From assembly GCA_000004695.1 (NCBI GenBank), contig CM000153.2, positions 1,120,001 through 1,184,000 on the forward strand: DNA of 64,000 bases, given 5' to 3'. A program made the position numbers and the translations under genes. Positions 40,700 to 63,282 of this stretch are shown here, piece by piece. Source of the DNA: Dictyostelium discoideum (lineage: Eukaryota). Under the pieces are notes generated by a model that was not told the DNA's origin, did no database searches, and was given only the letters and a program-made list of their open reading frames with translations. How positions within the stretch are numbered: the first letter of the stretch is position 1; every line of letters starts with the position of its first letter.

Positions 40700-43137
40700 A
40701 TGAATAAAGATAATAGTATTAATAAAAATAATGTAAACAATGATAATAATAATAATATCAATAATAATGTAATTAAAAAATTAAAAGAAGAAGTATCATT
40801 AAAGGTTAGATCATCAGTTGTAATAGTTTCATTGGAACAAGCTATTGAAGAGATAATATTTAATTCAATAGACGCAAGAGCAACAGTAATATCTATTTCA
40901 ATAAATTTATCGAATCTATCATTCGAGGTAAAAGATAATGGATTTGGATTGTCATATGAAAATTTAAAATTTGTTGGAGATCGTAATTGTACTTCAAAGA
41001 TCAACTCACTCTCTGATCTTAAATCATTAAAAACATTTGGATATCGTGGCGAATCATTAGCAAGTTTATCAAATATATCATCATTAGATATAATTTCAAA
41101 TTCATTTGGTTCAACCATTCAAAAATCAATTTCATTTGGCAAAGTTGACCAATTTAAAATTTTAGATAATAATAATAGTAGTAGTTGTGATAATAATAAT
41201 AATAATGTTAATAATAATAATATTAATAATAATAATAATAATTCAATAGCTAATGGCACAATTGTAAAGATTAGAGATTTATTTAAAAATTATCCTGTAA
41301 GAAGACAAGGTTTATATCATCCAAATTTAAAACTAATAATTAAAAAGAGAATTGAAATCATAGCTTTATCATTCCCAAAGATTGTATTCTCAGTTTATGA
41401 TGAAACAAAGAGTTTAACTATACTAAAAACACCAAAAGATACATCATTTCTTTCTTATTTCAAACATTTCTACGGTCAAGAGATGATGAATAAATTAGAA
41501 TACGTAACCTCTGAAAATTATAATAATACCACCAACAATAATAGTAGTTCTTACTATTTATCTGGTTATCTTTCTTCACCTCATAAAAAAGGTCATCCAA
41601 ATAAATCTTTTCAATATATTTGTAAGTTTTTTTTTTTTCTTGAACAATGAAAAAAAAAAAAAAAGAATTAATATTAATAATCAATTAATATATATATAAA
41701 AAGATTTAAATAATAGAATAGTTTTAAATACAAAATTACACAGACATGTTAATCAATTATATCAAAAGTATAGATTATTTAATGCAACCAGAAAAGCAAA
41801 CGCAAATGTATCAAAAATTGCAAAAAAAGAGGTGATTGATAGTAATCCAATATTCATACTATTTTTAAGATGCTCACAATTAGAATATGAACGTTCTTAT
41901 GAACCTTCTTCAAAAACATTTTTAGAATTTAATGATTGGAAGAAACCTTTGGCTGAAATTCAAAATGTTTTAACAAAATTTTTAACAAAACATAGATCTG
42001 ATGATGGTGGAAATTCAAGAGGTAAATCAATAACTACAACAGCACTACCATCATCTCAACCAAATAATTATGATGGAAAATCAACATCAACATCAACAAC
42101 AACAACAACAACAGCAGGTGATATTTCAATATTTGAAGATGATGATTTATCAAATGTTGTTCAAGACACCCAAGAAGATGATGGTGATGGCTTTGATATG
42201 GGATATAGCAGTAGTATCGATGAAGATGAAATAATGAGTTCTCAAAATGTTCGTGGTACAAGTGTTGACCAAGATAATAATATATATGAAAATGAAGATC
42301 ACCAAGGAATGCAAATTGGTTTTGATGATTTAGATAATAACCAAATCGATAGTAGTGAGGATGAGGAACATTTAAAAAGATTAAAAGAAATAGAAGAGGA
42401 AAAACAATACATTAATGATATTTTACCAGACTCTTTCTTTATGAATGATAAAAATGCAACAACAACTACCACAACAACAACAACAACAGGTACACCAACT
42501 AAAACAACAACAACTACAAATAATTCTATATCACCATTTAAAACAATCAAGAACATCTTCACAACAAACATCACCATTCAAATCTATAGTATCACCTTTA
42601 CAAATTTCTCCACCAAAAACAACTCTTTCGCAAAGTCAAATACAGAAATCATCACCTCTTAAACTATCAAATGTAAATAATCAAATAATTGACCAATCAC
42701 CACAATCTTCTTATGATGAATCAATAGAAGTTACACAACAACCATCTACTTTACCATTGTCTCCAATTCCTTCACCTCGTATTCATAGAAATATTCCACA
42801 CAATAAAAAAGATGATACTGCTTCCACATTACAAACAACAGATCCTTACGAGAGTTCGTCAAGGGATGTAACAGATTCTCGATCATCAGCGGATTCAGAT
42901 GCAACCATTTTAGATGATAGCCCACCTCCAAGACCACCAATATTCAATTTCCCACAAACTAAAAATTCAATACCCACAGATGAAAATCACTTTCATTCAA
43001 ACATAGAAGATCAAGAGGAAGAAAGAAGTGAAGATACAACCACAATGACTCCAACATCTAAATTAAACATATCATCCCAAACACCACCTACACTTCCACC
43101 AACTACCATTCCACATATCACAAATAACTCAACCCAA

Positions 43138-43214
<77 letters not shown>

Positions 43215-45945
43215 TAATAATAATGAAAATAAAGATTTGGTTCCATTTGTTAAAGTGGAACAAAATAATGATAAGCAATTAGCAATATATAAAAATGAAT
43301 CAGACGATGATGATGAGGAAGAAGATAATAATAATGATGATAAAGAAAAAAGAAAATACCAATTAAAAGTTTCAACATTTAGAGAAGTAATTGATGTCGA
43401 CCAAATGGATGTAACAACAATTACTACAACAACTACAACTATTAAAAGTGTAAAAACAGTTACTACAAAAACTTTATCACCATTTAGCAAGGCTGCACTG
43501 GCATCAGATGCTTTAAAAAAGAATCAATATAAGGTAAAGACAGAACATCCAATATTAATTAAAGAGGAAGATTATAAAGAATTAGACTCTTTGAAAAATA
43601 CCTCCAATAATGATCAACTAAATGATTCTTCATTATTTAGTAATTCATGTCTTGATATTGTTCCATTTGAAATTAGTGATGATGAAGCAGATGAAGACGA
43701 TGACAATTTAACAGGTTTAAATGGGCAAAAATTATTATTTTTAGAAGATGGTAAACCAACAAATAATGGTAATAGTAATAATACTCTTGCAGCAGCAGCA
43801 ACAACAACAACAACAACAACTACTACTACTACTACTACTTCACCTTTTCAAAGTAGTCCACCATCTTCACCATTATCACAACCAATTAAATCTATAATCT
43901 CTCAACAAACAACACCTCCAAAAAATGTAAGAAAAAATGATATTTTTGATGAAGATGAAAAATCAAACACATTATCATCACCAATTAAAAAGTTAAAGAC
44001 TGAAAATGACATTCAAAATAATATTGCTGACAGTAATGGTAATAAAAACAAAAACACTACAACCGATAATATTGAAATAATAGTTTTGGATGATAGTGAT
44101 GAAGATTTACCTCAAAATGAACAAACAACGTCAAAATATTTTAAATCAAATGAACAATTATCATCAACAGAGTCAACAAAATCAAAACTAAATCAAATTA
44201 TTTGTAAATTAGAAAAAGAATCGTCACAATCACAACAACTAACAATACCAATAACATCAACAACCTCAACCTCGGACTTAGCACCAACCTCAACCTCGAA
44301 CTCAGCATCAACCTCAACACCAACTATCCAAACTATAAAGACAACGTCAAACCCACTTACAATTCCTGAAATATCATTCTTGAGAAAACCAACGGCTAAT
44401 GAAGAAAAGAAATCTTTATTCAGTGATTCTGAATTATCAACCACTGAAAGTGAGGGATCCTATAATGAAGGTTTTATTTTGTCATCATCATCATCATTAT
44501 TAAAGAAAAGAGTTTTATTTAACATGGAAGGCAATCAATACTATTCACCACCTCAAATTCAAAATAACTCCTCCAGTGACCAAGATGAAGAGTATAATGC
44601 TAGTCTAACTTCACCACCACCATCACCAAAACAACAATACCAAAATCACTATGAACAAAATGAAAAAGGAAATCTTTTTATTAAAGAAGAAAAAGAAAAA
44701 GAAAAAGAAAAAGAAAAAGAAAAAGAAAAAGAAAAAGAAAAAGAATTAGAAAAAGAAAAAGAATTAGAAAAAGAATTAGAAAAAGAAAAAGAATTGGAAA
44801 AAGAAAAAGAATTAAAAAAGAAAAATGATGACGAGGTACAACAAGTACAAGAAAAAGAACATGATGACCATTGTTGTCCAACTCATAACATTGGTGATCA
44901 TTTAACACTTAGTGGTATTGGTAATATTAAAGAACATCAAGACGATGAATCTCTTGGAGATGATGATGAAGAAAAAGAATTTATTCATGATTCTGATTAT
45001 AGTAAAATTGAATTGGCGAAAAAATATAATTATACTGATGATAGAATTAGTCCATTCTTTGATAAAAGTATTAAACCTGGTGTTGAAATGAAAGATATCA
45101 ATATTAATGTTAGTGGTTTTATTAAAGAAGTTCTATCTCAAAAATGTACAGAGGTAATACCAAAGGAAATGTTACAAAACTTTAAATTTATCACTCAATG
45201 GGATAACAAGTTTTTAATTTGCGAAGCAGATGGTATTGTATTGATTTTAGATCAACATGCCGTTTCAGAAAGAATCAAATTGGAAATATTAGAAAGAAAG
45301 TATTTTGGTGAGAATAAATTCGACCTTTGTCCAATGCCAGAGAGAACAAGATGGTCATTAACAGAGTATGAATTGGAACTAATGAGAATCTATACAAAAC
45401 CATTGGAACAATGGGGATTCAAATGGACATTCAATAAAACTTCAATAAACATTTCACAAGTACCAATGTTTTGTTTAGTAGGTTTGGGTGTAAACGATCT
45501 CAGAGAATTTCTTTATCAATTAGAAAGTAGTAAAGGAGCAACTTCAAATAGACCTCCTGCTGCTCATAGAATTTTAGCTTCAAAAGCATGTAGAAGTATG
45601 TATCAATTTTAAAAATTAGTAGTATTAGTTTTATTGAATTTTTCAACACATTAATATTAACTTTTTTTTTTTTTTATAAAAACTAAAAAAAATAGCTGCA
45701 ATTAAATTTGGTAATAAACTTTCAAGAGAGATTTGTATAAAACTATTAGAAGATTTAAATGAATGTAATATTCCATTTCAGTGTGCTCAGTGAGTATTTC
45801 TTTTTTTATTTTATTTTGATTTTTATTTATTATCTCATTATAAATTTACTAATTATTATTAATTTTATTTTTTAGTGGAAGACCAAGTATAATCCCTTTA
45901 ATTAATTATGGTAAACTCTTTAGTTCAGTAAAAGGTTTATATTAA
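40700..45945 (+). CDS. mlh3: MutL homolog 3 (MLH3) mismatch-repair/meiotic endonuclease subunit; exons 40700..41633, 41703..~45595 (containing two frame disruptions), 45696..45789, 45876..45945
   Basis: N-terminal GHKL ATPase (LEQAIEEIIFNSIDARAT...VKDNGFGL...TSKI...TFGYRGESLASLS). YLNNRIVLNTKLHRHVNQL and ...YPIFILFLRCSQLEYERSYEPSSKTFLEFNDWKKPL are collinear with human MLH3 [21 protein letters not shown]...TLIEFQNWDTLL but sit in different frames. The C-terminal MutL dimerisation domain is in a third frame, followed by two short exons encoding ...ACR|TAIKFGNKL...NIPFQCAHGRPSIIPL (the MutL CxHGRP motif). Confidence 0.8.
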
Positions 45946-46069: not shown

Positions 46070-46305
46070 TTAATAATTTGTTAAAGCAACTTGTTTTTGA
46101 AAAGAAGGATAAAAATTTTTCTTTGGATATTTGAGGGCAGAAGAGGTTGTTGTTGCTACTGCCCCAAAATCACCATTATCATTATTATTATTTTCATTAT
46201 CATTGTTAATATCATTATCATTATTTTCATTATTATTATTATTATTATTATTGTTATTATTATCCTCATCATTATTAATATTATTAATAATATTACTATT
46301 ATTAC

Positions 46306-46375
<70 letters not shown>

Positions 46376-46393
46376 AATATTATTAATATTATT

Positions 46394-46424
<31 letters not shown>

Positions 46425-47758
46425 TTGATATTATTATTATTATTATTTGTGTTTGTATTATTTAGAAAATAATTATTATTATTATTAATATTATTTAATT
46501 CCAATTTTTTAAAAGTTTTTATTGTTTCGTTAAATGTTGAAGAGGTTAGCTTTTGTTGATCCTTTTTTGGATCTTTATTTTCTTTAATTTGTACAGTTTT
46601 ATTGTTATTATTATTATTATAATTATAATTATTAATATCGAAGTTTTTTGGAGGTTGAACTTGTTGAGTTGGATACCAATAGTTTCCATGAGGATTAACA
46701 TTTCCTAATCCCATTACGTTTGTTGAATTATTTTCATAAAATTCTTTCATCATTTCAATATCGGTTAATTTTAATTCATACTCTTTGGCATTTGTATTGG
46801 ATCTACAATATAATTTATCAAATAATACTTTTCTGAACTATAATTTTTAAATAAAAAAAAAAAGAAAATTATTTATTATTAATATAAATATATATTTCAA
46901 ATTATTATTACTATTTATTATTTATTATTTATTATTTACATTAATTTTTGAGAAATAACTGTGTGGTGAAATTGTATAATATAAATCCTCATTTCCTTTG
47001 TCAGAAATATAAATTGGTCTACCATCAGTTGAGAATCTATCAAAACCTAAATAAAAACTAACTTGATCGACATCTACACCATAGTATTTTTTTATTAATT
47101 GATTTTTAGTTGGTCTATAATTATATTTTTCAAAAAAGTCTATTGAATTTTCAATGATTGTTTGTGATGGCTCTTGAATTGTTGTTCCAAATAAAATGGT
47201 GTGGGATATGTTATCTTTAGTTAATTCCATTATTTTATTGAAAGTTTCAAGTAGAATTGGATCATTACCACGTTCTAATAATTTTATATATTCTCCATAG
47301 AATATTACACGAATACCACATTCTTTGTATAATTTTACCAATGTTTCATTTTCAAGTAATGCCTTTAATCCACTTAAATATTTAATAAACTTTGGTAAAT
47401 ATTCTGGCCCACGATCTTCAAGTGTGCAAAACCACATTGGATAAACTATTGTCTTTATACCATGTTTAAACATCATAACCAAATCAAATAATAATTTTGA
47501 AATTGCCGTTTTACAATAATCATCATAATCAATTGTAGTTTTTTCATCTTTTCCAGTAAATTTGCATTTATTATTATGAATTCCATTAGTTTGTAATTTA
47601 GAAATTGTATTTTCAATTAAGTAAGATCTTCTTGTACCATCATATGCATAAACCATAGTATTGCAATTATTTAATCTTGAGTTTATAATTTTACTAATCT
47701 CATTATCTGTTAATTTATTAAATTCTTGAAAATTACTATAATGGGATATTGGTGTCAT
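46070..47758 (-). CDS. divergent cis-prenyltransferase (UPP-synthase)-fold-like protein with long poly-Asn tail, paralog A, 2 exons (46940..47758, 46070..46837)
   Basis: Ordered weak matches to cis-prenyltransferase motifs: MVYAYDGTRRSY (cf. IIMDGNRRWA), IVYPMWFCTLEDRGPEYLP (cf. LYAFSSENWNRP), IRVIFYGEY (cf. VRLRIIGD), FYLGFDRFSTDGRP. Exon 1 ends AAT|GTAAAT; exon 2 begins FRKVLFDKLY... Family assignment is tentative. Confidence 0.5.
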
Positions 47759-48357
47759 GATTTATATATAATTATTTTATAATTATTATTATTTATTATT
47801 TATTATTATTATTTTACTTCCTTGTTGTTAAAAATTGTTAATTTTTTTTTTTTTTTTTATATTTATTATTTTAAATACTTTTTAATTTGAAAATTATTAT
47901 AATTTAAATTATTATTTAAAAAATTTAATATTTATTAAAACAAATGATTTGATCAAGATTTATTGAAAAAAAAAAAAAATTATAAATAAATAAATTTTAA
48001 AACAAAAAATAAAAATAAAACAAAATTTAAAAAAATATAAATAAATTTTAAATAATACACGTGGGTGTAAAATAAAATAAAATAAAAAAATAAAATTTAA
48101 AATGAAATAAAAAAATTTTAAGAAGAATCTATAACAAGAGTATGTAGGAAGTATATTTTAATATTAAAAAATGTGGGAAGGGTGATATACTTGAGAAATT
48201 AAAAATTATGATAATTTAATTATTTAAAATTTATTATAAAAAAATAAAATAAATGTTTTTATAACCTTTGTGATGATAATACTGATAAATCAAAGATATA
48301 ATTAAAGATTGATCTAATCGATTATTATAAAATATATATACGAGGTTTATATTTTTT

Positions 48358-48388
<31 letters not shown>

Positions 48389-48540
48389 TTTTAAAAAAAA
48401 AATAATAAAAATAAAAAGAAAATATGAAATGATTGTATTTGAGTGATGATAAAAAAAAAAATTAAAGTTAACAATTGTTTTAACTAAAAAAAAAAATAAA
48501 AAATAAAAAAAATAAAAATTTTAAAATAGAATAAAAATAG

Positions 48541-48576
<36 letters not shown>

Positions 48577-50093
48577 ATTAAAATTTAGGGAAAAAATTTA
48601 TGGTTTGAAAAAAATTATATGTTTGTTTTTAATTTTTTAAATTTGGATAATAAAAATCAAATAAAATTGAAAATAATATTTTTGGTTTGAACAAATTGTT
48701 ATAGATTATTGCTCTACACAATTAATAAATAATTTACAAAATTATTTATTTAAAACCTTTAAATTTACAAATAACTATATACGAAAAAAAAAAATTAAAT
48801 AAAAAAATAATAAAAAAAAAATGAAATAATTAAAAATTTTAATATTAAAATAAGAGAAAAAAAAAAAGTATTAAGTAATACTCAAAATAGCAACATAAAA
48901 AATAATAAAAATAATAATAATAATAAAAAAAAAAAAAAAAAAAAAAAAATCGTCAAAATAACAAACATACCAATAATTCCAACCACATAAAAAATATTAT
49001 AATTTAACAATACTATAAATATAATTATCCATTCATTATAATTATCATTATTTAAATTTTTAATTATCAACTCTTCAATTCACACAAATTAATAGTATTC
49101 ACCACCCTTTTTGGAATCCTCATTAGATTTTTATTCTATAAATTTTAATGAACAAAAATGAGAGAAGAATTTTATTATTTAAAAAAAAAATAAAATAAAA
49201 TAAAAAAAAATTAAATAAAAAAAAAAATAAAAAAAAAAAAACAATCAACTACAAATTCATCAACGATTTTTTAAAGTATATGTGTGAAAATTAATTTTTA
49301 AAAATCATTTAAGTATAAGAGGGTATAAGTTTAATTATTTATATGAGAGAGTTTATGAATAATCTGTTAAAAGATTTATAAATATTTTTTTTTTTTTTTT
49401 TTTTTTGTTTGTGTTAATAAAGGTGTTGTTTTTACTTGTATTTTTTTTGGGGGGGTAGTTAAGTGGTATTCAGTAATATTTTTTTGGAAAATTAACGGAG
49501 ATAATATGTTGATTTATCGAATACAATCTTTTGAACATTTATGTGTTAAAAGTTAACCCTAAAATGGAATATTTTAAAATGAAAAAATATTAAAAGTAGG
49601 ATAAATTGTGGAAAGTATTTATTTTGATAAATAGTTGTAAGGTTTTATTATACCTTTATCATCATATGTATCATCATTTTCTAATTTGTGGATTTTTAAT
49701 ATTAACAACATATTTTTTTAAAAAGGGTGAAAAAAAAAAATAAAAAATAAAAAATAAAAACAATTTGGCAGTTGTAATTTAATTATTTTACAAATATAAA
49801 ATAACAATAACAAGAAAAAAAAAAGAAAAAAAAAAAGAAAAAAAAAGAAAAAGATACATTAACATCAACATCAACATTAGGAAAAAATACATACATGTAT
49901 AGGTATATATTTAAATACACACACTTATTCAAAATTAGAAATTTTAACCATTTGCGCTCTAATCATATTTTTTTTCATGTTTCCATTTTAAATCATTACT
50001 AATTATTGAAAATCTACATTTAGAATTGAATGGGTATCAAAGGGTTTAAATTATTTTTTGTATTATAATTTTAATTCTTTAAATATAAATAAA

Positions 50094-50129
<36 letters not shown>

Positions 50130-50816
50130 GTGAACAAACTATTACACCATTGAATAATCATATTATTTAAAATTCATTAGTTATGGTGATTGGTAAATTA
50201 TCATAAACAAAACGATTAGTTGTATTCTCGCAATTCTTTCAAATTCCAACATTTCTATTTTAATAATTATTTTCAAATGAATTTTAAGTGGTGTTTTATG
50301 AGAAAAAAATAAATAATATTCTAATGGTAAATAATCATTTTTAAATATATTGGTGGTTAAAAGATTTATTTAATTTTTGTCTTGTGTTGTTTATTATTTG
50401 AATTTGGTTTTTTTTTTTTTTTTATTTTTTTTTTATTTTTTTATAATTATTTGTTTATAATTATTTGTTTTATAAATATTATTTTTTGATTGGGTAAATG
50501 TTTGACTTGTAAAATTAAGTTTGAAAAAAAAATAAAATAAAATAAAATAAAATTATTTTTTATATTTAATGAATGTGTTTATTTGAATTTGAAAAGTCAA
50601 AAAACTAAAAAAAAATAAAAAAAAATTATCTTTTGGAAAGTGTTTCTATTTTTAGAATAAATGCACAGTAATTTTTTAACAGATAAAAAAAAAAAAAAAA
50701 AAAAATCATTTTTTTTTTTTATTCATATTTGTATTTTTTTATTTTTTTATTTTATTTTTTATTTATTTAAAATTATAAAAAATATATTTTATATTATACA
50801 TTAAAAAAATCAATTA

Positions 50817-50843
<27 letters not shown>

Positions 50844-50849
<6 letters not shown>

Positions 50850-50989
50850 AAATTTGTCAAGGTATCTTGGTGATGATGGTGATCCCATTGAAATGTTTTG
50901 TTTAATTGTTAATGTTTGACAATATTGATATTGATTTTCTTCATTTATAAATGAATTATGTTGTTTACATCCCATTAAATTATTATTAC

Positions 50990-51046
<57 letters not shown>

Positions 51047-52176
51047 TACCATTATTATTACTACCATTATTACTATTATTACCATTATTACTATTACTAT
51101 TATTGTTATTATTATTATTTAAATTTGAATTAATATCAAGTTGTTTGAAGAGTTTAAATGCTTCATTTGTTGGTGATGATAAAACTATAGTTTGATTATC
51201 ATCATAATTTGGTTTTTCTATTGATTTTTGAGGTAATTCAACTTGAGGGCTAGGATGCCAATAATTTCCATTTGGGTTTACATTACCAATACCCATTATA
51301 TTATTTGAATTATTTTCATAAAATTTTTTCATCATTTCAATATCATTAACTTTTAATTCATATTCTTTAGCATTTGTTATAGTTCTTTGATAAATATGAT
51401 CATATAAAACTTTTCTAAACTAAAACATTATTTAAGTTAATATTATTAGGGAATTGAATATAATTTAATTAAATTAAAAAAAAAATAAAAAAAAAATAAA
51501 AAAAAAAACATACTCCATTAGTTGATAAGAAAGAATGTGGTGAAACTGTATAATATAAATCTTCTGCACCTTTATCAGATATTAAAATTGGTCTTCCATC
51601 TGTGGAAAATCTATCAAATCCTAAATAAAATGATACATCATCAATTTGGGTATTAACACCATAATAATGTTGAATTAAATCATTTTTAGTTGGTTCTGAG
51701 GAAAAAAAAAAAAAAAAAAAGGGAGAAAGGGGGGAAGGGGTTAGAAGTTGATCGAAAAACAAAATTTTCAAATAAAAAAAATTAAATATTAAAAAATGAA
51801 AAACATACCCCTTCCAAATTTTTTATAAAATGATAATGTATTATTAATTATAGTTTGAGATGGTTCTTCGATATTAGTACCTAATAATAATATTTTATTT
51901 GAATTATTTTTTGTTTTATCCATAATCTCTTCGAATTTTGATAAAAGTTCATTATCATTACCACGTTCTAATAATTTTTTATATTCACCATAAAATATAA
52001 TTCTAACCCCATTCTCTTGAAATAATTTAAAAAAATCATAATTTGGATCTAACAACTTTGATAAACCCCATAAATATTGAATAAACTTTGGCAAATATTC
52101 TGGCCCACGTTTTTCTAATGTACAAAACCACATTGGGTAAACAATATTTTTAATTCCATGCTAAAAAAAAAAAAAA

Positions 52177-52216
<40 letters not shown>

Positions 52217-52651
52217 TAATTAATTATAAATAAATAATAAAATAAAATGGAAATTAAGTAATTAAAAACTTACTTGGAACATCATAATTGATAAATATAA
52301 AAAATTATGAACTGCGGTCTTACTATATTCATTGTAATCAATTTTAATTTCTGTATTTTTATTATTATTAATATTATTATTATTACTATTATTATTATTA
52401 TTTGAAATATTATTTGAATTATTATTTAAATTATTATAATTGGCAGAATTTGAAGTATTGGCAGATGTAGCCAATGGAGAATTACAAACTTTTAAATTTT
52501 TTAAACCTTGAGAAATGAGATAAGATCTTCTAGTACCATCGTAGGCAAAAACCATTGTTGAATTTTCACCTTTTAAAGAGGTATATAATTTTGAAATTTC
52601 ATCATTTGAAAGTTTATAAAAATTTTCTTCTAAAATATTATTATTGGTCAT
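50844..52651 (-). CDS. paralog B of the 46-47 kb gene, 4 exons (52274..52651, 51809..52160, 51514..51695, 50844..51419)
   Basis: Collinear with paralog A: MVFAYDGTRRSYL, HGIKNIVYPMWFCTLEKRGPEYLPKF, VRIIFYGEY, VSFYLGFDRFSTDGRPILISDKGAEDLYYTVSPHSF, FRKVLYDHIYQ..., poly-N/S tail. It has two extra introns that paralog A lacks. Confidence 0.5.
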
Positions 52652-57276: not shown

Positions 57277-57982
57277 ATGAATAATATGATAAGAAGTAGT
57301 ATTTCAAATATTATTAAAGGTGCTACATATACACAACGTTTTGCATCTACATCAACAACAACACAAGTTGCATCAGGATCAACCATAATCAATAACAATA
57401 AAAGAGGATTAAAAGACTTTTTTGAACATACATATCCAATTGGAACATATCCATTAGCAGGTCGTTCATGGGCTGCTTCTGATCTTCGTGGTAAATCTTT
57501 CAATGATTTACATGAACTTTGGTTCGAATTATTAAAAGAAAGAAATAAGCTTTTAACTGAAAAAGAAATAACTAAAAATAATCAACTTCAAAATCCACAA
57601 CGTGTTACAAAGGTAAATAATAAATAATAATAAATAATAATAAATATTAAATAATAAATAATAATTATATATTTATATTTGTTTATTTATTATGTGGTGG
57701 TTAAAATATATATTTTAGGTTAGAAAATCAATGGCAGCAATTAAAGTAGTTTTAGGTGAAAGAGATCAATTAAGCAAAAGTTTATATTTATTAGCAAAAG
57801 CAAGTCAAGATGGAAATCACAAAAAAGTTAAAGAATTAAAAGAAAATATTAAAAGATTAAATAAACTTGTTGGTGCTGTTTCTCTTAAACCAGGTTTAAA
57901 AGAACTTGAAAGTTTACAAGATACCATCAAAGTAGATGAAACTTTAGAAAAGAATATAGATTTATTATTAAAACAAAACTAA
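57277..57982 (+). CDS. mitochondrial ribosomal protein L47 (uL29m/MRPL47), 2 exons (57277..57612, 57719..57982)
   Basis: GLKDFFEHTYPIGTYPLAGRSWAASDLRGKSFNDLHELWFELLKERNKLLT is the conserved MRP-L47 core. Donor AAG|GTAAAT, acceptor ttttag|GTTAGAAAATCAATGGCAGCA, so the track's two ORFs join in phase. Confidence 0.85.
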
Positions 57983-60564: not shown

Positions 60565-61635
60565 ATGACAAATCAATCGAATTGCCAAAATTGTGATTGT
60601 AAAACATTTGACCCCAACCCTTTTAAACCATTATACTGTTCAATATGTCTCCATAATCATAAAGTGAAGAATGCAAATGTTTCAGTGAATGCGACATCAA
60701 CATCAACATCGGCAGCACCACCAAAATCAAGCTCCACTAATAATAAAGGCGCAACAATTAGTGGTTCACCATCAACATCATCATCCTCTTTAAATCAACA
60801 ACAAAAGAGTAAACCATTACCACCAAAAACTCCTTCAAAATCACCATCAAGTCCAAATTTAACTTCTTCTTCTCCTTCTTCTTCTTCAAGTGGTGGGGGT
60901 GGTGGCAGTGGTGGTAGTACAGCAGTAAAAAAGAGACCAGATGCTCAAAACTTTTCAAAACAATCCTCTTCATCCTCATCATCATCATCATCATCATCAT
61001 CATCAAGTCCTTCAGCAACATCACCAAAAACTTCATCAGGTTCATCATCATCATCCAAATCATCAGGATCATCATTTATGAGTAAAATTGGATCATTTAA
61101 AGATGCAGTAACAGATAAAGTAAATACATTAAAAGAGAGTACTTTTTCATCTTCGTCGTCATCATCTAGTGAACCAGAGGTTAAAGGATATGAAATTTCA
61201 GGGCCAACCGATTATAAACATAATACTCATATTGGTATTACAGAGAATGGTGGTATTTCAACTAGAAATATTCCAGAAGAATGGAAACAAACTTTCCAAA
61301 AAGTTGATCAAGCATTAAAACAAAATGGTAAAAGAGGTATTACAAAGAAAGAAGCAACATTCATTTTAAACGCTGTATTAAGTGGTCAAACACCAAGTCC
61401 AAATGTTTCATTAAGAACTACACCAGTTGCAACCTCTGCAAATGCACCTGCTTTACCACCAAAACCAAATGCTAATAATAAACCATTACCATCTGCTCCA
61501 AAAACTATACCATCGGCATCACCATCAATTTCTTCAACTACTACTACCACTACTTCAACCTCATCCTATAATAGTAGTGTAAAATCTACACCATCATCAT
61601 CTGTATCATCATCTGTATCATCATATTCATCTTCT

Positions 61636-61680
<45 letters not shown>

Positions 61681-63282
61681 TATAATAAGAATACAACTTC
61701 ATCATCATATAATAATGGTGAAATTGAAAAATTAAGAGATAAAATTAAACAATTAGAAAATAAATTAGCAAATGAAGAAAAAGAACATAATTTATTATTA
61801 ACTAAATATAAAACATTAGAATCGAAATATACTGGTGGAGAAACCAATCAAAATCAAGCAGTTAATGAAGCAAAAACTGCTAAAACCAAATTGGAACAAT
61901 TAGAACGTGAACATAGTTCATTATTGAATAAGATAAAGGTATTGGAGACTAATAATCAATTGGTTCAAAATGAGAATAAGAATCAAGAGAATGAATTATC
62001 AAATTTAAAGAAATCCATATTAGATTCTAAAAAGAATATGGATGCCGATAAGGGACCATTGATTGAAAAGATTTCAACATTGGAGTCGAAATTAAAGGAT
62101 TCCGAATTTGAAAAGAGATCAATTCAATCAAAGGACCAAGAACTTGAGAAAAAGCTAAAGGAACTAACTAACCAATCCAAAGAATCTGAACAACAATCAT
62201 TTGAATACCAAGTGAAGATTAAAGAATTATCAAGTCAATTGGACTCCCTAAAAGAGGCATTGTCAAATAATAAAGATTTGTCATCAAAGATTCAAGAGAT
62301 TTCAAATCAATTCCAACAAAAAGAAAAGGAGTTGAAAGAAAGCTATGAGAAACAGTACAACCAAAGATTGAATAACCAAAAGCTTGAAATTGATCAACTC
62401 TCTAGCACCCTCTCAAAGGAACAACAGAAATCGAATAAATTTGAAATGGAATTAACCTCTAAGCAAAGGGACTTTGAATCAACTCAAAAACAAAGAGACG
62501 AATTTAAATTGCAATTTAGTAAATCTCAATCTCAATCCGATCAATTACAATCAACAATCGATCAATTGGAGAATCAACTTAAACAAATTAAACTCTCACA
62601 AGCTCAATCTCAAAATATTTTAGATTCTAATAATAAACAACAATCGGATCAATTGAAATCATTATCTGATTCAAATAATAAATTAATTAAAAAGAATGAA
62701 GAATTAGAATCGATCATTGATAAATCAAGAAAGGATTCAATTGATATCAAAGGTAATTATGAACAAAAGATTGTTGAATTAGAATCTAAAATTAAAATCT
62801 CTCAAAATGAATCAAATAATCAACATGATCAAAAATTATTTGATCTTCAAAATAAATTTAAATCTGAAAAAGATGATTTATTATTAAAAATTAAACAATT
62901 ACAAGATCAATTATCAACAACAACAACAACAACAACAAAACATCAATCACATTCTTCTTCTTCTTCAGCTGTTCCTGCTGCTACTACTACCTCTACTTCT
63001 ACTCCATCATCACCACCACCTCCACCACCTGTTGCACCACCACCTCCACCATCTTCATTCAAACAACCTTCATCAGATACTTCTAGAAATAATTTATTGG
63101 AATCAATTCGTCAACCAAAAGAATTGAAAAAAGTTACTGAAGCTGATATGACTCACAATAATCAACAAGAAGATGATGGCTCAATGGTAAATATATTAGT
63201 TAGAGCTCTCATTGATAGAAGACAAAATATGAATGAAGACGATTACGATGATGAAGATGAGGAAGTTGCTTGGGATGATTAA
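60565..63282 (+). CDS. WASP-family-like protein lacking WH1: N-terminal Cys/His cluster, CRIB, about 540-aa coiled coil, poly-Pro, WH2-central-acidic (VCA) tail; single exon, 905 aa
   Basis: CRIB: EISGPTDYKHNTHIGI (ISxPxxFxHxxHVG). Poly-Pro: SSPPPPPPVAPPPPPSS. WH2: RNNLLESIRQPKELKKV. C-region: VNILVRALIDRRQNM. Acidic/Trp tail: EDDYDDEDEEVAWDD. N-terminal: CQNCDCKTFDPNPFKPLYCSICLHNH. Confidence 0.7.

Follow-up and report, generated by a model that had tools for sequence, protein, structure and literature searches.

1-Tuberculosinyladenosine is an abundant lipid of Mycobacterium tuberculosis (Mtb), a phagosome-neutralising terpene-nucleoside that blocks lysosomal function. The enzyme Rv3378c forms it by transferring the tuberculosinyl group of halimadienyl/tuberculosinyl diphosphate to adenosine, with tuberculosinol and isotuberculosinol as hydrolytic by-products, and the substrate comes from the class II cyclase Rv3377c (PMC9585517; PMC11476799). 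The kolavelool synthase of Herpetosiphon aurantiacus, the second characterised member of the family, was reported to be a diphosphate hydrolase; by that account, these two alone among enzymes of the cis-prenyltransferase fold are of the hydrolase type, and neither condenses isopentenyl diphosphate (IPP) (PMC8131916). A 2024 PLoS Biology study of the 1-tuberculosinyladenosine locus sought orthologs outside Mycobacteria and found none (PMC11476799). Here we describe two neighbouring genes, named A and B, in a 64,000-nucleotide stretch of the Dictyostelium discoideum genome (contig CM000153.2, positions 1,120,001 to 1,184,000; hereafter the window), whose products are full-length homologs of Rv3378c with a cis-prenyltransferase-like fold.

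The family has been touched on once before in this organism. A 2021 microPublication on the AX4 protein DDB_G0275279 found its I-TASSER model structurally closest to PDB 3wqm, termed 'a M. tuberculosis hydrolase', and gave the protein decaprenyl-synthase and peptidoglycan Gene Ontology terms, with no family, evolutionary or mechanistic interpretation (PMC8280847). PDB 3wqm is Rv3378c.

When the protein of gene A was compared with PDB sequences by phmmer, Rv3378c was matched across residues 77-328 with E=7e-39; the DGTRR motif at the N-terminus aligned as well. End-to-end alignments with Rv3378c gave 26-28% identity, and a family profile of 112 sequences matched it over the full length (positions 1-298) at 1e-115. 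Rv3378c was the sole match of this profile in the PDB, with no UPPS, DHDDS or NgBR chain at E<=10. Scans of A and B against Pfam and NCBIfam returned nothing meaningful, and PF01255, the cis-prenyltransferase family, matched neither protein at E<=10. Since neither library has a model for Rv3378c either, this silence reflects a gap in the libraries and is not evidence of novelty. It is because the family has no such model that its dictyostelid members are labelled 'hypothetical protein'.

The structural comparison led to the same family. An AlphaFold2 (AF2) model of A, built on a 112-sequence alignment, reached a predicted local distance difference test score (pLDDT) of 90 and a predicted template modelling score of 0.89. 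Searched against the PDB with Foldseek, it returned Rv3378c in each of the 14 best matches (E about 1e-22, template modelling (TM) score 0.83-0.87). Canonical cis-prenyltransferases formed a second tier, at E about 1e-8, TM about 0.73 (0.65-0.76 when normalised to the target) and 11-15% identity; this tier comprised UPPS, Z,Z-FPP synthase, decaprenyl and dodecaprenyl synthases, lavandulyl-type synthases and human DHDDS. Among the 50 matches listed, those to the human complex (ranks 39, 48 and 49) were all to chain A. Since the fold is matched and the sequence profile is not, kinship with the canonical enzymes lies at the level of fold only, and the family is that of Rv3378c.

These results bear on the idea that A and B are divergent canonical cis-prenyltransferases condensing IPP onto an allylic primer, either as polyprenol/dolichol-type or as short-chain Z-prenyl diphosphate synthases. 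The fold held in common with UPPS, Z,Z-FPP synthase and DHDDS and the DGxRR-type first motif agree with it. However, A and B have no PF01255 match, the family profile does not reach UPPS or DHDDS chains in the PDB, UPPS-type structures share just 11-15% identity with A, and the closest characterised relatives, Rv3378c and kolavelool synthase, carry out no IPP condensation (PMC8131916). We therefore regard a canonical activity as highly improbable. A sequence-only reading of this locus had proposed the cis-prenyltransferase fold, with structure prediction as its check, and the AF2 model and Foldseek bear it out, as right but imprecise. The DG-RR and other blocks that it pointed to are real conserved motifs in the alignments, whereas membership of the canonical UPPS/DHDDS family by sequence did not hold. 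Its suggestion of an undescribed lineage-specific family also falls, as A and B are full-length homologs of a characterised enzyme and of hundreds of bacterial proteins.

The residues D34, R37, R38, Y51 and Y90 of Rv3378c have equivalents in both proteins: the D40-G-T-R43-R44 motif, Y81 and Y120 in A, and the D38-G-T-R41-R42 motif, Y109 and Y148 in B. Tyr51 and Tyr90 are what we take to be the catalytic tyrosines of Rv3378c. Chan et al. (2014) reportedly proposed a two-tyrosine mechanism for this enzyme, and the titles of the mutant PDB entries agree: 3wqn and 4kt8 are the Y51F and Y51F/Y90F mutants, and the mutant complexes contain substrate. We examined conservation in an alignment of 93 bacterial sequences, sampled with Rv3378c as seed, and 19 dictyostelid sequences. 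In Rv3378c numbering, Asp34, Thr36, Arg37, Arg38, Tyr51, His69, Gly70, Arg86, Gly87, Tyr90, Arg241, Asp246, Arg251 and Trp292 are kept in A and in P0008, the D. discoideum ortholog of B, as are the FYG(D/E)Y, YYG and LY(F/Y)T blocks; B of the window has the same DGTRR, DYNEY and RGPEY motifs. Altogether, of the positions that are conserved in 90% or more of the 93 bacterial sequences, A and B retain nearly all.

Compared with their orthologs in a D. discoideum isolate, the cores of A and B had ratios of nonsynonymous to synonymous substitution (dN/dS) of 0.084 and 0.11, respectively, at a dS of about 0.12, and are thus under strong purifying selection. The tail of A, with a dN/dS of 0.30, is relaxed.

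We considered whether A and B could be catalytically dead subunits with a regulatory or scaffolding role like that of NgBR/NUS1, for instance paired in a dimer with another member of the family. Dimers are the working form of enzymes with the cis-prenyltransferase fold, in keeping with such a role, and long disordered Asn-rich tails are odd for a small-molecule enzyme. Moreover, a sister clade outside the window (DDB_G0275279, ACTFIR_006953) no longer has the TRR motif, the RG motif or the counterpart of Tyr51, which indicates that pseudo-enzymes do arise in the family. A and B themselves, however, keep the Asp, the Arg pair, both Tyr residues and nearly all of the widely conserved bacterial positions, their core dN/dS is about 0.1, and they have no sequence similarity to NgBR/NUS1. 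Taken together, a dead-subunit role is unlikely for A and B, and the retained catalytic residues and low core dN/dS (0.08-0.11) argue against the NgBR/NUS1-type pseudo-enzymes raised by the sequence-only reading.

The degenerate clade has kept the fold and an open reading frame (ORF) in several isolates (L086 10001-11055, which is the DDB_G0275279 locus; P0016, P0019 and P0014). Judging from their residues, DDB_G0275279-type copies are candidate pseudo-enzymes or candidates for pairing with the active paralogs in dimers.

In a word-indexed search, A matched dictyostelid proteins only, from D. purpureum, D. discoideum, D. firmibasis, D. citrinum, D. dimigraforme, Polysphondylium violaceum, Tieghemostelium lacteum, Acytostelium subglobosum and Heterostelium album, and intact reading frames occur in nine or more named species of dictyostelids. 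When 1.84 billion cluster representatives were searched exhaustively with phmmer, 167 clusters were retrieved. The five best were all dictyostelid, Cavenderia fasciculata included, followed by a gap to 1e-36 and at most 34% identity. Of the nearest non-dictyostelid matches, the two whose contigs we examined lie in compact, prokaryote-like surroundings, and one of them adjoins a squalene-hopene-cyclase-type gene. With Rv3378c as query, 385 proteins were found, mostly in metagenome-assembled genomes of Anaerolineae/Chloroflexota; among bacteria and archaea, scanned at one genome per species, relatives turned up in 293 genomes, and the best 80 of these were nearly all Anaerolineae/Chloroflexota. 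All relatives found beyond A and B are dictyostelid or prokaryotic.

In the best 80 of the 293 genomes, a class II terpene cyclase gene lies directly downstream on the same strand at 68 loci and nearby at 7 more (75/80). Only five loci are without one, and three of these are cut by a contig end. Natural fusions of an Rv3378c-like protein with a cyclase also occur (P0149, 803 aa; P0173, 828 aa), the cyclase half of P0149 matching the SQHop_cyclase Pfam domains. A and B lack this coupling to an Rv3377c-type cyclase within the 64 kb of the window; the coupling is a contextual trait of the bacterial members and does not define the family at the protein level.

We built a neighbour-joining tree of 151 sequences with midpoint rooting and 100 bootstraps. 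The dictyostelid proteins formed one clade in 99 of the 100 replicates. The order within the clade resembles the species tree, with Cavenderia, Heterostelium and Acytostelium at the base, then Tieghemostelium, then the expansions in Dictyostelium and Polysphondylium violaceum. By patristic distance, the nearest bacterial sequences mostly carry the same C-terminal W[YH]P.PQV..P motif as the dictyostelid proteins, a motif absent from Rv3378c, and Mtb ranks 42nd of 129. The most economical history is probably one ancient transfer from a Chloroflexota-like bacterium to the dictyostelid stem, the direction being suggested by the much greater bacterial diversity and by the operon context.

A family that is otherwise prokaryotic, with dictyostelid members all annotated as 'hypothetical protein', could also point to decaying, non-functional remnants of a transfer or to bacterial contamination of the assembly. 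Yet the genes have spliceosomal introns, the 13-26% GC composition of Dictyostelium and poly-Asn tracts; their synteny is kept across D. discoideum, D. purpureum and T. lacteum; and their frames are intact across the dictyostelid species named above, with core dN/dS about 0.1. Between them, the introns, the base composition, the synteny and the selection exclude contamination, and this explanation as a whole is effectively refuted.

The column of Asp34 deserves separate mention. Asn occupies it in 90 of the 93 bacterial homologs of the Rv3378c-seeded sample, and Asp in Mtb and the dictyostelids; in the broader bacterial sample, Asp occurs in 35 of 129 sequences. Asp versus Asn at this position may mark functional subtypes, such as hydrolase versus transferase. 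A special link between the amoebae and Mtb by way of the common Asp34 was considered and rejected, given how widespread Asp is in the broader sample and the position of Mtb, which is not near the dictyostelid clade.

Taking into account the conserved residues, the AF2 model and the analogy with Rv3378c, we propose that A and B are functional eukaryotic enzymes of the Rv3378c family, which would ionise an allylic diphosphate and pass its skeleton to a non-isoprenoid nucleophile with no chain elongation, and that the family came from a single bacterial transfer. We give this reading a probability of roughly 70%. Asp40 (Asp38 in B) would bind Mg2+, Arg43/44 (Arg41/42 in B) would bind the diphosphate of the donor, and Tyr81 and Tyr120 (Tyr109 and Tyr148 in B) would assist the departure of the diphosphate and the capture of the allylic cation; these residues are conserved, and the roles are those suggested by their Rv3378c counterparts. 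The acceptor may be water, giving a terpene alcohol, or a nitrogen of a purine nucleoside, giving an N-prenyl nucleoside. The donor is probably a linear prenyl diphosphate, of which farnesyl or geranylgeranyl diphosphate is the simplest guess, or the product of an unlinked enzyme. Elongation of a chain with IPP by A or B is unlikely. After the transfer, the genes would have acquired introns and Asn-rich tails and then duplicated.

Several points weigh against this proposal. We infer the activity and the substrates of A and B by analogy. A search of the 64-kb window and of five dictyostelid loci, each about 21 kb long, found no class II terpene cyclase gene, and with the cyclase absent from the dictyostelid loci examined, the substrate logic of the bacteria is not simply transferable. 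Furthermore, all or most dictyostelid copies have a different residue at W39, E196, S232 and Y259 (Ser, Val, His and Glu, respectively), positions with little or no variation among the 93 bacterial sequences. As read from the alignment, these replacements could mean that the chemistry has changed. The direction of the transfer and its donor rest on taxon distribution and a midpoint-rooted neighbour-joining tree.

The replaced positions in the dictyostelid sequences hint at an altered donor or acceptor specificity. D214 (Rv3378c numbering) is changed as well, to Gly, with an Asp one residue earlier. The replaced positions and the missing cyclase partner together suggest that the amoeba enzymes probably work with a donor, an acceptor or both unlike those used in bacteria.

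A bolder scenario may be sketched on top of the proposed enzyme activity. Social amoebae might make their own prenyl or terpenyl nucleosides, or lysosomotropic or cytokinin-like lipids, through a family captured from Chloroflexota, and Mtb might later have captured the same family for use against macrophage phagosomes. Active copies (A, B and the 6704 type) would then stand beside degenerate ones (DDB_G0275279 type), possibly as heterodimers. We regard this scenario as speculative and rather doubtful.

The features of the locus are collected in Table 1. The ORFs and splice sites confirm the two minus-strand paralogs about 3 kb apart that had been read from the sequence, together with their 2 (A) and 4 (B) exons and a change in introns since the duplication; every splice site is canonical GT..AG, and the frames close properly. 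A and B are 56% identical across about 370 aligned residues (BLASTP E=6e-133), so that their divergence is moderate, not high as first supposed, and the core common to them is about 335-370 aa where about 270 had been estimated. The Asn-rich tails are present as described, and their lengths of 190 (A) and 127 (B) residues, plus the 46-aa insert in B, replace the earlier range of 150-250. The tails have a short motif in common (TFNETIKTFKKLEL / TNEAFKLFKQLDI). The insert of B falls in a surface loop that joins the DGTRR motif to the Tyr-bearing helix; the matching loop in the model of A is of low confidence (pLDDT 55-78). GC in the region is 0.11-0.26, AT-rich and with the poly-Asn coding tracts typical of Dictyostelium.

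Table 1. Features of the A/B locus, in window coordinates
Feature	Position	Strand	Description
Gene A	46070..47758	-	exons 47758..46940 and 46837..46070, stop codon included; 528 aa; from ORFs and GT..AG sites
Intron of gene A	46939..46838	-	102 nt, GT..AG, phase 0
Catalytic core of gene A	46643..47758	-	aa 1-338, split by the intron; from alignments, Foldseek and dN/dS
C-terminal low-complexity tail of gene A	46073..46642	-	aa 339-528, 190 aa, 49% Asn
Gene B	50844..52651	-	exons 52651..52274, 52160..51809, 51695..51514 and 51419..50844; 495 aa; from ORFs and GT..AG sites
Introns of gene B	between its four exons	-	113, 113 and 94 nt; GT..AG
Asn/Ser-rich insert of gene B	52352..52489	-	aa 55-100, 46 aa, 52% Asn
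C-terminal tail of gene B	50847..51227	-	aa 369-495, 127 aa, 37% Asn
Intergenic spacer B-A	47759..50843	.	3.1 kb; no gene detected

The sole intron of A and the third intron of B coincide in the alignment: both are in phase 0 and fall at the same codon boundary, between ...KIN and FRKV in A and between ...TNG and FRKV in B. This identity of position and phase implies that the intron is older than the duplication. In D. purpureum, the ortholog of A (L085 10001-11179) gave a single unbroken tblastn segment across the position of the A intron, and the alignment of the B ortholog was likewise unbroken across the position of the first B intron. Individual introns were therefore gained or lost in the family after the split from D. 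purpureum.

The spacer between the genes contains no ORF of at least 63 aa, as the sequence-only reading had it, and no tRNA, no Rfam match (gathering score; E<=1) and no relic third copy of the family; the Dictyostelium ncRNA upstream element WCCCAYAA was looked for in it and not found. Its GC is 0.05-0.23, and its orthologous counterpart in the D. discoideum isolate matches it at 94.5% identity. It is thus ordinary AT-rich intergenic DNA, and the 'unusually complex' character attributed to it was not upheld. Presumably, it holds the promoter of A and the 3' end of B. The centre of the spacer (48900-49650) is 96-97.5% identical to the isolate, with several flanking 250-nt windows at 90-93%, and its GC climbs to 0.23. 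Neither feature is accounted for by an ORF, a tRNA or an Rfam family. This segment may be a regulatory element or just a compositional effect.

The window is collinear with the D. discoideum isolate (GCA_054859385.1) at 89-95% nucleotide identity, and B is 96% identical over aligned codons to its syntenic counterpart there, ACTFIR_010248 (P0008). The gene order ATG14 / MRP-L47 / small gene / B / A / MutL-homolog is kept in the window, the isolate and D. purpureum, and T. lacteum has one homolog only, adjoining MRP-L47. This conserved order and the single T. lacteum copy place B at the ancestral position; A is a tandem duplicate older than the split of D. discoideum and D. purpureum.

Among the neighbours, the gene at 40700-45612 (+) encodes a MutL-family mismatch-repair homolog with an N-terminal HATPase_c_3 and a C-terminal MutL_C domain. 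It has very long low-complexity inserts, namely poly-Asn, poly-Thr and an (EKEK/ELEK)n repeat near 44,700-44,900, and its ortholog flanks A in D. purpureum and the D. discoideum isolate too. Listed as downstream of B are an exon of the mitochondrial ribosomal protein MRP-L47 at 57277-57627 (+), a synteny anchor reaching back to Tieghemostelium lacteum, and a 905-aa ORF at 60565-63282 (+) with a P21-Rho-binding (PBD/CRIB) domain.

A literature search returned no paper linking Rv3378c to Dictyostelium homologs or to Chloroflexota, and the dictyostelid proteins are the first recognised eukaryotic branch of the family. The tuberculosis literature has viewed Rv3378c as having no relatives outside mycobacteria; instead, the family is large in Chloroflexota, where it nearly always travels with a class II cyclase, and has a conserved, selected, intron-bearing branch in sampled dictyostelid species of every major group. 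That branch is uncoupled from the cyclase, altered at conserved positions and remodelled by introns, Asn-rich tails and paralog expansion, degenerate copies included. Its only earlier notice in Dictyostelium was of one degenerate paralog, likened in passing to PDB 3wqm (PMC8280847). The branch adds what is probably a clean case of bacterium-to-amoeba gene transfer and offers a tractable model organism for what else the Rv3378c-type fold can do. It also raises a testable question: do amoebae contain terpene or prenyl nucleosides? If they do, professional bacteria-eating phagocytes would house a kind of eukaryotic terpene-nucleoside metabolism that has gone unrecognised.

Compared with known systems, A and B are closest among characterised proteins to Rv3378c (PDB 3WQK, 4CMV, 4KT8; tuberculosinyl adenosine transferase / tuberculosinol-isotuberculosinol synthase), which they resemble in fold, in sequence (about 27% identity), in the key residues and at most family-invariant positions. 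Unlike it, the amoeba genes have introns and no adjacent Rv3377c-type cyclase; their proteins bear Asn-rich tails of 127-190 aa and the C-terminal W[YH]P.PQV..P extension, carry amoeba-specific replacements at W39, E196, S232 and Y259, and show no special phylogenetic affinity to the Mtb branch. The nearest non-dictyostelid relatives are the 'diterpene synthase' homologs of Chloroflexota (Anaerolineae) and the kolavelool synthase of Herpetosiphon aurantiacus, at 27-36% identity. A subgroup of these Chloroflexota homologs has the WYP.PQV..P motif at the C-terminus, as the amoeba proteins do, whereas the bacterial genes are nearly always in an operon with, or fused to, a class II cyclase and mostly encode Asn at the Asp34 position. 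With the canonical cis-prenyltransferases (UPPS, DHDDS/NgBR, Z,Z-FPP synthase; PF01255), A and B have the overall fold and the first DGxRR-type diphosphate/Mg2+ motif in common; they differ in the 11-15% identity, in the absence of Pfam- or profile-level similarity, and in that their own nearest characterised relatives do not condense IPP. Within D. discoideum AX4, DDB_G0275279 belongs to the same dictyostelid family and is 54% identical to A, but it lies at another locus and has lost the TRR, Tyr51 and RG residues that A and B retain.

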